DNA of 6,599 nucleotides, taken from Paraspadella gotoi (Eukaryota; Animalia; Chaetognatha). A model generated the notes under the pieces. It searched no databases and had not been told where the DNA came from. It saw nothing but the letters and a program-made list of their open reading frames with translations. Positions 1 to 6,599 of the stretch are shown here, one piece after another. Location of the stretch: contig JBJCIZ010000057.1 in assembly GCA_051294375.1 (NCBI GenBank), positions 1 through 6,599 on the forward strand, read 5' to 3'. The stretch's first letter is position 1. Each line of letters opens with the position of its first letter. Position numbers and translations under genes: made by a program.

Positions 1-1058
1 GGAGTTCTCGATCCGTAGTAAGGTCGTGGGTGATTTGGGTGGTGTAGTAAAAATGAGGTGAGCTTGTTGCTTCGACCTCGATCTTACAGCTTGGGATCAT
101 CATGGTTTCCCCTGTGAGCCGAAGGGTGAAGAGTACCTTTTGGTTTGCGTCACAGATCGGGGCACATCTTTCATAATTGTCTTTTATGCCCGGTCTGATG
201 AAGGTGCTGAGGCAATTCTTCCAGCAATTTGCTGGATTTCTTTTCACTTCCTCTGCACAAGGCGTTTTCCCGTCTCTGAGGGTGCAGTTCTTTAATGCCC
301 TTTCCTTGTCGTCGTTTGTTAGCGAGCGGATTATCCCATCTGCGCTTCTGACCATCGGACCTGTGTAGGCTCGATGCGCTCGGCAAACGGGATCTTTCCA
401 AGCCAGTATGCCGCCCGGGTATATGCATCTTTGGGCGGCCCTGTTGCAGTCGGTCTGCTTGGGGAGGTAGCTGAGATCCGTCATTCTCACTCTCTTCATA
501 GAGAGTGAGGTTGATGGTGAGCGTGGCTCTTTCCCCATCATAAGTGAAATCGTGGAAGACCAGCTTTTCGCCTGTGCAGTATCCGTCTGCGTCCGATGTG
601 CCGATTTCATGCTTAGCTTGATTTAGGCCAAGCTCNNNNNNNNNNAGAGTTAGAGGTCTCATGATTCCGGTTCGATCAGACAGCCTTATCGGGACGTTTT
701 CCAGGGAGATTCTCTCTCCATTGTGTAGAGCAAGGCATTGTGATCTGGTGAGTGAGAAGTGATCGGTGGTCTGCAGGTTTGGATATTGTATTGACCACCA
801 TCCACAGACACTTCCGACTGCTGAGATGGTAAGGTCACAGCCTTTNNNNNNNNNNTCTTCCTTGTCTGGGATGAAAACGAGTTCTCCGCGCCCTGTTTTC
901 TCCGATACTGGCTTTGGTCTTTCACAGTGATGAGGGTCGAGCAAGGTTGCTGTATGATCTGAAGTCCGGTTACAATTGTAAACCTGGACTATGTCGATCT
1001 GTTTCGCGTTTGCCAAGCTTAAGGCTAAGGCGAGCCTTATGAGATGGGTTGGAATCAT
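1..1058 (-). CDS. env: Env-like envelope glycoprotein, chuvirus/Jingchuvirales G-like; one frameshift near 485-500; runs off the left edge
   Basis: Signal peptide MIPTHLIRLALALSLANA. Motifs VYNC..LLDPHHC, C.LTI....VCGWWS, LT...C...HNG and GTSDADGYCTG...TINLTL. After the shift an open frame continues to base 2: DCNRAAQRCIYPGGILAWKDPVC...YTG...FTLRL...SCKIEVEATSSPHF. Sequons NRT, NLT and NCT. The last ~105 aa of the tracked ORF 171-1058 are out of frame. Confidence 0.8.
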
Positions 1059-1870: not shown

Positions 1871-1929
1871 TTTATTTTTTTTATTTTTCTATGTCTTTAT
1901 TTACAGTGGTATGACTCTGTTTATTTATT
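1871..1929 (-). terminator. Cluster of five AATAAA hexamers at and just after the pol stop
   Basis: Plus-strand TTTATT occurs at 1871, 1880, 1896, 1920 and 1924. Function is untested. Confidence 0.35.
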
Positions 1930-3200
1930 TGTTTGTCATGTGAGGCTTGAGTCGTCGCCTGTGATATTTCAAGTTCTGACCATTTATTGAGACGATATAA
2001 TGGTTCCCGTCTCGTTGTACGACCTTGTGTGGGCCTGAGTAAATCCGTTTTACTTTGTTTTCGGTCGTCGCGGTTCNNNNNNNNNNNNNNNNNNNNNGGG
2101 TAAGGACCAGATCTCCAACTTTAATCTCAGCTGTTGTTTTGTATGGGTTTCTCCTTGACGCTTGTTTGTAAAGTTTGGTTCTTTGATCCGCTAATCTCGT
2201 TTGAGCTTGTTCCTGCCTGTCGGCTCTCTTTCTGATGAAATCAACGAGATTTCTCTTTGTGAAGTCGTCGGCGGCTTCAACAATCCTCGGTCTATGTCCG
2301 AACTGGATCTCATGAGGAGACATTTCTGTCTTCCAACCGATGATGGGCGTGGCGTTTAGGAGTAACATTAGGTGAGGGAGTTGATCCAGCCACTTTCTTG
2401 GCTGGTCCTCGACAGCTTTGCGGAGGGCTTGACGTATTCTGCCTATATCCCTCTCCGCCCTATTACTGTCTTTTCTCCCCACTAAAACTCTCCTACCAAC
2501 TGTGTCGAGCAAGTCCAGTATGGAGTTCATTGCCTTTCCGTTTAGTTGTGTTGCGCCATCAAAGTTTACTTCCATATATGAGCCGTGTTGGAGAAAGATC
2601 CTTTCATCTAGTGCTTTCACTATAGTTTCAGCATCTGCGCGNNNNNNNNNNATAGCCCACGTGTATGCGGATGCATTGTCAGATGCAACTAAGGCGTAGT
2701 TAAACCCAGCTACNNNNNNNNNNTGCATTACGTCAATGCTCAGTGATTCCCACGGAGTGATAGCTAGATTTGGAGCTGATGGAGTTTCGTTGTTCCTCTG
2801 TGCATCAGTAGCTTTTGCGCAATTATCACAGTTTCTTACGCATCTTGCTGCGGCGGCTGATAATCCTGGTGCTGTGACATATTGGGCTGATATAAACGCC
2901 GTGCGATCACGGCCGGGGTGTCCATAGTGTTGGTGTATTTGTTTTATTATTTCTTCGATCTTATTTGGTGGAACAACAAACTTTGTGGTCGGGTTATTTG
3001 CTTTATAACCTTTTAATATCAGAATCGCGTTTTCGGTTATGTCAAGATCGGGAAGGACGTTTGCCAGATACTTTTCGGTTAGAGTTCTTCTCTTTTGCAT
3101 TTTTTTATTTAGTATTCTCTCGGCGTTAACCCGGTCGTTTTGTTGCAGGGCCTCTATGACGCTTTTGAACAATTCGTCTTCTTGTTGCCATTGTTTAACG
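1925..3200 (-). CDS. Integrase, uninterrupted (C-terminal part of ORF 1925-3733; the frame is open from 3919)
   Basis: HQHYGHPG...CDNC zinc finger; PWESLSID (D at 2734-2732), FDGATQL (D at 2560-2558), SNRAER (E at 2455-2453); LNATP, SPHEIQFG, VGDLVL, YSGPHKVV (GPY/F) and YHRRRLKP. Confidence 0.95.
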
Positions 3201-3442
3201 TGTTCCGCTAATGGCATGAGCTTCATTTCTTTCTTATGAGGATTTGCTGCCTCTTCTGCTATTTCTGGGGCTGAGGCATCAACGTCTGCTTCCAGTGTGC
3301 TGTCGGTCATCAACTCTTCTTTTGCACCGGGCCATTTCGACTGAATTGTTTGCACTGAGGCTTGCTGTGGTGTTATGGTCGGCGTTGGCGGCGTTGTCGC
3401 GTTGTTTGGTTCCGGCATTTGTATATGGACTAGGTCCTCTGG

Positions 3443-3960
3443 CAATGCTTCCCAGTGATGGCTGGCGACGTTTTGTCTTTTTGGCCTTCCTCTGAGCTCT
3501 GGTTTTCTCAGATTTGCTACGTTGATAGTTTGGATGTCCTCGTTTGCCGGGCGGAGGGGGCGTGTCGGATTTTCGTCACTGATGAGACTGACTTGTCCAG
3601 TTATGGTTCTGAATATTTTTATTCGTCCGACGTGGTCGGTCGGTCCGTATGTTCTTTCAAACTTACAGCCGGCCTCTCGTGTTGAGTCCTCTTCCATTAT
3701 TGTGATTGCGATGCCTGTCATTTCGCCTAACATTTCTAGCTCTGGATGACCTAAATTCCAGTCTTTGGCAGATATTGTTCTGACGAAGGCATCAGCGTCC
3801 TTCGTTTTTGGTTTTCCATATAACTTTTCTATGTTTGTTTTGATTGATGCAAATTTTTGTCGTACAAATTCGAAAAATTTTGGTTCTGAAAACTTTTGTT
3901 TCTTCTCCCAGTGTTTGGGCTACCAAGGCGAGGTGTGGTGCATGGCCTGTTATTAGATCT
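3443..3960 (-). CDS. Putative OTU-like (cysteine protease fold) domain between RNase H and integrase
   Basis: One correction at the A5 run 3873-3877 gives LVAQTLGEETKVFRTKIFEFVRQKF...DAFVRTISAKDWNLGHPELEMLGEMTGIAITIME...TYGP...IKIF...HHWEAL. This parallels the OTU pattern AQxLxG..LR..V.Y / F..Y...M...WGG..EL..LS...I.V / HY.AL. The catalytic DGNC motif is not clearly present. Confidence 0.45.
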
Positions 3961-4082
3961 AAATGTTCTGGGGTCACGTGATCTTGAACTGGGTTTTCGG
4001 CGAACCTGGCTCATAATTGCCGTCGACATCAAAGCCGCGCGGGGAAAAAGGGGTGTCGAGGGGGTGACCTGTCCTTGCTCAG

Positions 4083-4462
4083 TGAATCGTGTTAAGAATC
4101 AGCTGGATTGTCTTCGCTTTTTACTAGGATTATTTCTTTCGGTTGGCATTCTTGCCGGATCTCCGTTATCCATCTTAAGACGTTTGTCGGGAGCATTTGT
4201 TGTCGGTCATGCTGTAGATCCATTACTCTTTTAAAGTATTGGGAATCAGTTACTAAAGTTACCCTTCTTCCACACGTGTAACCCTTGAACTTTCGCACCA
4301 TCATATTAAAGCCAGGTTTCCAAGACATTGATGTGCTTGATTCGTTTCCTCTGGAAAGGATTTTGAGTGAAGAGAGGCGGATATTCGACGAGCGCCGTCG
4401 GCCGTGGCGGTGATTAGTCCGCCCATGGCGCTGGTACTAGCGTCCGCGTAAATTCGATAGAA
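4083..4462 (-). CDS. RNase H domain (frameshifted)
   Basis: Acidic motifs occur in order: YRIYADASTSAMGG (~4462-4421), HINVLE (~4336-4319), LVTDSQY, and EDNPAD followed by LTR after a 1-nt correction (equivalent to NxxADxLSR). Confidence 0.85.
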
Positions 4463-4699
4463 CCATTTCTGATTCTAGCATCATTTAAAAAGTTTAACCC
4501 TGGCAAGGCCTTGATTTCGTCGACAAGGGTTTGGAGCATCTCGATGTGTTTCTCGGAGAGCTTGAAATCTTTCTTGTCAGTAGGGTTAGGGCGTGAAGGG
4601 GTTGGGCGATGTAAGAATCGATGCGTAAAGCATCTGTAATAGAGTTTAAGGAAGCTAGCATCGCTCTGTTCCTTCTGCGTTTTGAGGGTTTGTTTTAAC

Positions 4700-5412
4700 T
4701 CGACCCGCTTGTAGCTTTTCTTTTTGTGGGAGGAGCTTGCTCTTGGAGATGCTGAAGCCAGTATCTTGATGTCTTCCTTTCTGAGGAGGACACTCTTCGT
4801 CCATTTGAGGACGACGTTTTCGTCTCGGCATTTCTGCAGTAGATCTCTGAGCCTCTGTGCCATGTCTTCGGGTGACTTGGCTGTGAGTATGAGGTCATCC
4901 ACATAGACTAAAAAGCTTTTCACGTCGTGCCAAGGTCATGGAAGATTTCGTCCAGGATTGCTTGGAGTACGTTTACACTATTTACGCCTCCCATCGGTAG
5001 CTTATTCATCCACCAGTTGTGACCTGCGCCCGCAAAGGTCGTGACGGGTTTGCAGCGCCTCGGTCAGATTGACCTGGTGGAAACATGCTAGGATGTCGAC
5101 GGAACATTGCAGCTCATGTGGCTTTATTGTTCGAGGATTGAGGAGATTGTCTGTGGTTCCGTGGCGTACGTGGAGATGTTGTTGTTGACGGAAGAGAGGT
5201 CGCAAATGAGTCGCCATTGTTTTGCGAAGGTCTCGTCGTTCATTTCGTCTTGTCCCTCGGCAATGTGGCCAGGCTTTTTTATGAGGAAGGCGTTTTGAAT
5301 AAGCTTCGTTTCTTGTGCTAGACACGATGCCAGCCTTTTCATATACTTCGAGATATCTTTTTAAGGCGGCCTTTTTGACCGGGCCTTGGTTAGCAAATCT
5401 CGGCTTGGGCAA
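4700..5412 (-). CDS. Reverse transcriptase domain (several frameshifts)
   Basis: Motifs across frames: YEKAGIV, NAFLIKKPG, WRLICDLSSVN, SVDILACFHQV, NKLPMGGVNS (~5008-4979), FLVYVDDLIL, then LLQKCRDENVVLKWTKS. Confidence 0.93.
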
Positions 5413-6179
5413 ATCTTCCGTTGTGTAACCGAGGTCAACTTTGTAATTTAGGAAGCCCTCCTTGCAATCATTTATTGTTTCTCCAAAAACGTCGCGATTA
5501 TTCCCAACACAATTTCCCAGACTAGGTGAGCCTTGTCTTGTAGGGAGGGTCTACGTCTTTGAAGGGCTTTAGGAATGCTTCCTTTCCACGGGCATCATGT
5601 TTTTGGCGCCTGTTCTGCCTGGCTTCCTNNNNNNNNNNNNNNNNTTCTTCCGTTGGTTTGTGATGAACTATCGTTGTGGCGGGGATATGGTCCTTTCTCA
5701 CCTTCCTGAGTACAGGTTTTTCGCCTGTCAGGTCCGCCTGGACTGGCTCGGCTGTTGATCCTGTTTCAAGTCCTAGTTCGGATTTCGCCTGATTGGTTAT
5801 CAAAGGTCTTGCTGTGCCCCATGGTCCTGGATAGGCGTCGAATTCGACTCCTTCTCTCAGCTGGTCTCCGTCTGCGACGTGTACTTCCTCTCCATCACAA
5901 GACTCAACTATCCATCTGGCACCAGCAAGGGTTTTCCAATACGGTTTGGTGGAAGTTAGTATGATCCTTCCTTCTATGTTCTGTTCGGCGTGAATGGGCA
6001 CCATTGTGTGTTCATCCACGTTTCCCCGGGCCAACCATCTGGCAGCTTTCAAGGCCTCATACTTGTCTCGGAACAAGTGGGTTATGGGCTTATTTCCCAT
6101 GGAGGCGACTTGGAGGTCGTGTCTTTGGTTTGATGGTTGTACCACCCACAGTTGGTCTGGAGGCCCGGGGTTGGTGACT

Positions 6180-6445
6180 GCCGTTCCTATGATGTACGTC
6201 TTTGATCATTCTCATCCGCGAGACGTAGAAAACCGTTTTTAAGGGTCCATTTTTGGAACATGATTCTTAAGTTTATCCTCTCTGTGAGAGTGATGTTTCC
6301 AGGTGGCGTTGACAGCTTGAGAGGGGTTCCGTGGTAAATTGTGTTTGGACAAATGCCCATTTTTCGATGAACTGCCCGCGGGACTGTGTTAACAGATGCC
6401 CTGTATCATACAGGCAGCTTGCTGGTGCTCCTAGCATTAACAGCT
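6180..6445 (-). CDS. Retropepsin-type aspartic protease domain (frameshifted, absent from ORF track)
   Basis: Minus strand reads LLMLGAPASCLYDTG, with DTG at 6407-6399. Adding one G gives DTGASVNTVP. The downstream YIIGT (~6197-6183) matches the hydrophobic-hydrophobic-G motif of retropepsins. Confidence 0.8.
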
Positions 6446-6599
6446 GGAATAGTAGCTGTTTTTAATCGCTGTGTGACATATTTTTGTGCTGTCGTCATCT
6501 GGGCTCAATGTCCACTTCTTATCTTTAAATGACGTTTGTTAAGTTCTCGGGTAAAGTTGGCATCTCCTTTTCATCTTTGGTAGTGTCGGGTGTTGGTTG

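Follow-up and report, generated by a model that had tools for sequence, protein, structure and literature searches.

The window analysed here, the whole stretch of 6,599 nt, includes six runs of N, and all of its coding features, like every feature located below, lie on the minus strand. Read in that direction it carries a Ty3/gypsy-type pol region with reverse transcriptase, RNase H and integrase, then a spacer, and then an env-like gene in the same orientation as pol. A DTG motif at 6399–6407, picked out by eye, is presumably the active-site motif of an aspartic protease; the Pfam search of the window gave no protease match, and the assignment comes from this motif. The roughly 200 residues between it and the reverse transcriptase (5525–6205) had no family match in Pfam either. 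The reverse transcriptase (4500–5520) is spread over several frames, with YVDD at 4894–4905, and matches PF00078 (E 3.2e-6); against solved structures this piece found the Ty3 reverse transcriptase (4ol8, E 0.001). Designed WD40 repeats scored above the Ty3 enzyme in the same search and were discarded as summed repeat noise. The RNase H (4095–4474) is present in pieces, which were placed by a pol profile and by two Pfam matches that both score below the cut-off (PF17917, E 0.028; PF17919, E 0.075). The integrase (1925–3050) is unbroken and contains an H2C2 zinc finger (about 2810–2974), a DDE core and a GPY/F-like motif. It matches PF17921 (E 7e-11) and PF00665 (E 0.003) and, among solved structures, the PFV integrase (E 2.4e-11) slightly ahead of Ty3 Gag-Pol (E 2.5e-9). 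Between integrase and RNase H lies a bridge of at least about 300 residues (3051–4094) with no meaningful Pfam or PDB match. It contains a Pro/Thr-rich stretch, and a part near 3590–3750 looks by eye like the C-terminal half of an OTU-like protease motif; Pfam gave no support for this likeness.

A search among longer proteins matched pol to 7 of 7958 candidates, all of them polyproteins with the RVT_1/RT_RNaseH/H2C2/rve families and 21–25% identity; one is fungal and one has a chromodomain family. Along the window, a profile built from these seven relatives recovers pieces of the reverse transcriptase, the RNase H and the integrase one after the other, and with the protease included by motif alone, the order protease, reverse transcriptase, RNase H, integrase is that of Ty3/gypsy elements (Metaviridae). 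A search with the integrase among proteins of near length gave none of 4853 candidates. Judged by its sequence relatives, pol is gypsy-type and not BEL/Pao, as the preliminary description had held, and the low identities of these relatives would mark a divergent lineage.

The integrase stop and the ATG of the env-like gene are separated by an A-rich spacer of 866 nt (1059–1924), which holds tandem arrays with a 46-nt unit (1062–1311) and a 68-nt unit (1438–1625). Its sense strand is 44% A and has four polypurine runs, and the arrays reach to within a few bases of the env ATG. The spacer could contain splice or translation signals for env.

The env-like reading frame starts with an ATG at 1058, continues in a single frame to about 490, proceeds in another frame from there, and leaves the window at its start. 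The first piece (490–1058, with the frame shift near 490) comprises a predicted signal peptide and fusion domain I, recognised through PF24664, the relative P0016 and Foldseek; the second (1–489) covers the domain II region, is open at the window start, and was matched by BLASTP to P0006 (E 2e-13). The predicted signal peptide (1005–1058) was read by hydropathy and by eye, with no dedicated predictor: the N-terminus, MIPTHLIRLALALSLANA, has a hydrophobic core with a mean Kyte-Doolittle value of 2.15 over 11 residues. In about 346 residues there are 16 cysteines (6 in the first piece and 10 in the second) and three N-glycosylation sequons, at 971, 512 and 289. The preliminary description had announced a co-oriented gene after integrase with a signal peptide, many cysteines and many sequons; the co-oriented gene and its cysteines are borne out, the signal peptide is predicted from hydropathy, and three sequons are not many. 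The order of motifs that it listed for the protein is present as well.

The first 190 residues of env match the Pfam family PF24664 (Monjiviricetes_fusion) with E 1.3e-6, a score of 27.2 bits where the cut-off is 27. Taken by itself, the second piece has no match in Pfam, and a phmmer search of an env piece against PDB sequences returned nothing at E 10. An Atlas look-up with the second piece offered unrelated phage-type clusters, which were rejected for sharing few features with it. Within the first piece the motif CGWWS (792–806) is the predicted tip of a fusion loop. It lies between two long predicted strands (model residues 73–81 and 96–102), in a loop that is itself modelled with pLDDT below 50. 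At the same position relatives read CGAWS, CGRWS or CGFAN, and aromatic residues are kept there. From these features and the model we infer that CGWWS may act as the fusion loop.

A full HMMER search with env gave 13 matches, of which a 5365-residue repetitive protein (P0008, matched in 11 stretches) was removed as spurious. The remaining 12 are env-like proteins with 26–44% identity, 11 of them non-redundant since P0003 and P0011 are near-identical. Six of the 12 matched PF24664 at E ≤ 0.1, two of these above the cut-off. Most informative is P0016, a cluster mate of 717 residues that itself matches PF24664 with E 1.4e-21. Both pieces of the window gene are colinear with it, at 39% identity for the first and 28% for the second, and the alignment scores of 330 and 162 stand far above the best values from 300 shuffles, 54 and 63. 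All 16 cysteines are conserved in P0016, including 10 of 10 in the second piece. About 330 residues of its length fall beyond the window, and in its C-terminal part a stretch starting at residue 619 is hydrophobic. A search with P0016 returned its own cluster only; in the ESM Atlas its top three clusters are all PF24664, at a low recognition score that lends weak support. Scans for loci with related pol and env found none, neither in viral contigs (with the integrase; alignment A5) nor in metagenome contigs (with P0016 and P0003).

Structure comparisons were made with predicted models of low confidence, with a mean pLDDT of 41 for P0016 (mostly 60–85 in the fusion-domain part) and 46 for the window piece. 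In Foldseek searches of BFVD, 13 of the 15 matches of the P0016 model at E ≤ 0.001 carry the name of a glycoprotein from a chu-, qin-, xinmo- or rhabdo-like virus, as do two of the three matches of the window model, the third being without a name. Sequence identity to the viral glycoproteins is 11–21%. Against solved structures the best Foldseek row for these low-confidence models was EBV gB (E 0.03). VIA superposed a low-confidence model on HSV gB with Z 3.6, an rmsd of 5.2 and 132 aligned residues, which is level with C2 domains, and gave no Z above 3.4 for the window model (mean pLDDT 46), with gB there at Z 3.1 or less. VIA scores stayed below 4 throughout, and neither F protein nor rhabdovirus G was prominent, which rules out nothing. 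By sequence family and predicted viral structures, the gene after integrase encodes a class III glycoprotein of the Monjiviricetes or chu-like kind and not a baculovirus F. A comparison with viral fusogens had been proposed as a check on this point, and the Foldseek matches, obtained with models of low confidence, fell mostly on chu-, qin-, xinmo- and rhabdo-like glycoproteins. Since these matches are tied at no more than 21% identity, no donor virus family is singled out. The assignment to a chuvirus-type G thus survives as regards class and broad affinity, and not as regards chuviruses as the donor: nothing indicates them as a specific or recent source.

Nine sequencing runs of one organism, from three studies, contain 82–90% of the sampled words of the window, and one of them may be its source. 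Short-read contigs of four public runs were compared with the window. At the env break, all contig depth differs from the window in four of four runs, and one contig variant is otherwise identical to the window over 146–519. Over 2724–6599 there are 46 gap places relative to the contigs, with details taken from the 12 of 46 that were listed. Contig and window are exactly alike over 2724–3607, and over 4430–4810 one contig has two substitutions and 13 gap letters. Among the 12 of 46 gap places listed, small gaps are dense over 3850–5560, almost without substitutions. The source assembly is unevenly corrected, exact in 2724–3607 and dense in gaps in 3850–5560, and gaps without substitutions would fit sequencing error better than decay. 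The contigs lack the env break of the window, and the listed differences between variants are concentrated at third codon positions, so that the frame breaks probably reflect errors of assembly in an element that is conserved, rather than decay.

In all four compared runs two variants occur, about 6–10% apart over both env and pol and at similar depth, from which no copy number can be read. They are either two subfamilies or two fixed haplotypes. Substitutions fall on third codon positions in 9 of 11 cases in env (P 0.0014) and in 21 of 26 in the integrase (P 9e-7), where some rows may be other gypsy families; these tallies cover 40 of 169 substitutions, the 40 being those listed, with three in the spacer left out. 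In three pieces of the reverse transcriptase the count is 21 of 22, taken from 22 of 40 listed substitutions out of 187 in all. This bias suggests that env, like pol, is under purifying selection.

The combination found here has a published counterpart. Chary and Hayashi (eLife 2026, PMC13524379) described chuvirus-like, HSV gB-type env genes beside gypsy pol across animals and argued for an ancient origin. The combination of a gypsy pol with a chuvirus-type env is real in the window, yet it was already published, and the earlier suggestion that it was new, or a capture specific to this lineage, does not hold. The element can very probably be placed among the errantiviruses of the HSV/gB type as these authors define them. 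Here as there, a Ty3/gypsy pol precedes an env of the same orientation, which in the window has a predicted signal peptide and encodes a chuvirus-like class III protein. In the accessible part of their material, the closest likeness by eye is to the Insecta_C1 cysteine pattern, and domains I and II have in common the order C..CG, C..H, G.D..G.C, C......C...G...W...C, YxG and F.L...C...T.HP. At the fusion loop the window has CGWWS where that part of the published set has CG[MAL][HFY]..SH. The exact motifs CGWWS, CGAWS, CGRWS, DGYCTG and RERAT have no row in the supplements of PMC13524379, and CGFAN has one, at a different position. A further difference is the long pol bridge without a family match in the window; in the published type this region is classed by a mini or pseudo-RNase H domain. 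With the gypsy, ZAM and Idefix errantiviruses of Drosophila the element shares the gag-pol-env layout, as far as it is known from pol and a partial env, and the presumed passage from soma to germline (PMC13524379). As env they carry a class I F protein, whereas the env of the window is class III: where an F-type errantivirus would have a class I F-like env, the gene here matches PF24664 and class III glycoproteins. With the glycoproteins of Jingchuvirales, Xinmoviridae and qin-like viruses (PF24664) it shares the family match and the predicted fold of the fusion domain, and it differs from them in its 11–21% identity and in adjoining a retroelement pol instead of an RdRp or nucleoprotein gene.

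We consider it very probable that the window contains pol together with the first half of env, both from one Ty3/gypsy retroelement; this class III (chu-like or herpes gB-type) env is predicted to fuse the particles of the element with adjacent cells. Three other explanations deserve comparison with this one. The gypsy lineage could have captured a chuvirus glycoprotein independently and comparatively recently, founding a separate infectious lineage. A recent transfer sits poorly with an identity of at most 21% to any viral glycoprotein, tied across several virus families, and the 11 non-redundant relatives at 26–44% speak for a family that has long been separate. By eye, its arrangement of cysteines also matches the published insect gB-type ENV in the part of that set at hand, and such a capture appears quite unlikely. 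An element of the BEL/Pao superfamily is harder still to reconcile with the data. The order of the pol domains is common to BEL/Pao, and the mosquito elements named Anakin are BEL/Pao elements that carry a Chuviridae glycoprotein, according to the accessible part of their description (Dezordi et al. 2020, PMC7642597). The window resembles these, as far as that part goes, in a chuvirus-type glycoprotein downstream of an LTR retroelement pol, and departs from them in its gypsy-type pol and in an env whose relationship to any chuvirus is distant. All seven pol relatives have a gypsy-type Pfam architecture, one of them with the chromodomain family, and both reverse transcriptase and integrase matched Ty3. 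The Pfam searches of the window gave none of the families that we take to be Pao-specific, and the probability of this reading is close to nil.

Pol and env could also be chance neighbours, either an endogenised or domesticated chu-like glycoprotein gene that came to lie by an unrelated gypsy pol, or a mis-assembly in the repeat-rich spacer. Gypsy fragments often adjoin endogenous Jingchuvirales glycoproteins with no clear sign of capture, as reported in the accessible part of Dezordi et al. (PMC10084718). The window is error-rich, its spacer has the tandem arrays, and no contig among those listed covers the whole spacer, so that the linkage of pol and env is drawn from the window and from the parallel variants. 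Likewise, no LTR-like repeat pair, PBS, PPT, TSD, gag or TM anchor was found inside the window, which stops within env at one end and near the protease at the other, and the status of a single element is accordingly drawn from adjacency. Against a chance arrangement stand the common strand, the canonical order of pol and env and their short spacing. In independent runs, contigs tie the spacer to the start of env (856–1182) and to the end of the integrase (1669–2066), and the two variants recur across both genes with similar divergence and depth. We regard a chance arrangement as highly improbable.

If the errantivirus reading is adopted, a cycle can be outlined by analogy with Drosophila errantiviruses and class III fusogens (PMC13524379), from which particle formation, fusion and route are taken; what the window itself shows is gene content, family and conservation. 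The RNA of the element would be packaged by Gag, and Pol would reverse-transcribe and integrate it. Env would likely be made from a separate message, spliced or internally started, across the 866-nt spacer. It would enter the secretory pathway through its signal peptide, be held by a predicted TM segment outside the window, and trimerise on budding particles. The tip of the CGWWS hairpin would then insert into the target membrane, and Env is predicted to fuse the particles with cells nearby, likely those of the germline. How errantiviruses with a gB-type env enter cells is described as unknown in PMC13524379 (section 11), and a literature search for a functional study of a gB-type gypsy env found none, which does not prove that none exists.

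One feature of the ectodomain bears on this question. Between the YxG and F.L...C motifs the window env has a stretch of 79 residues with six cysteines (128–367), and P0016 has the same stretch, with 80 residues and six cysteines. At this place the insect gB-type ENV rows of PMC13524379 have about 20–28 residues and no cysteine, according to a comparison by eye of 21 of the 124 insect rows and a few more, in a supplement of 229 sequences in 16 groups. The insert is a small new feature of the env ectodomain, and it may already occur elsewhere in the data of Chary and Hayashi (PMC13524379), which were consulted in that part. A bolder, rather doubtful proposal is that the window represents a deep gypsy lineage, so far unsampled, in which the class III env gained the six cysteines as a disulfide-bonded receptor-binding module in domain II, and that this family is still active in its host. 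If this were true, the module would explain, for this clade, how gB-type entry can proceed without the helper glycoproteins of herpesviruses.

The case falls short of establishing any new route to retrovirus-like elements. What it contributes is one more, divergent, member of the published series of gypsy elements with class III envelopes, along with sequence evidence that selection preserves env together with pol. For the question of how errantiviruses of the gB type enter cells, the six-cysteine insert, being conserved, offers something concrete to look at.
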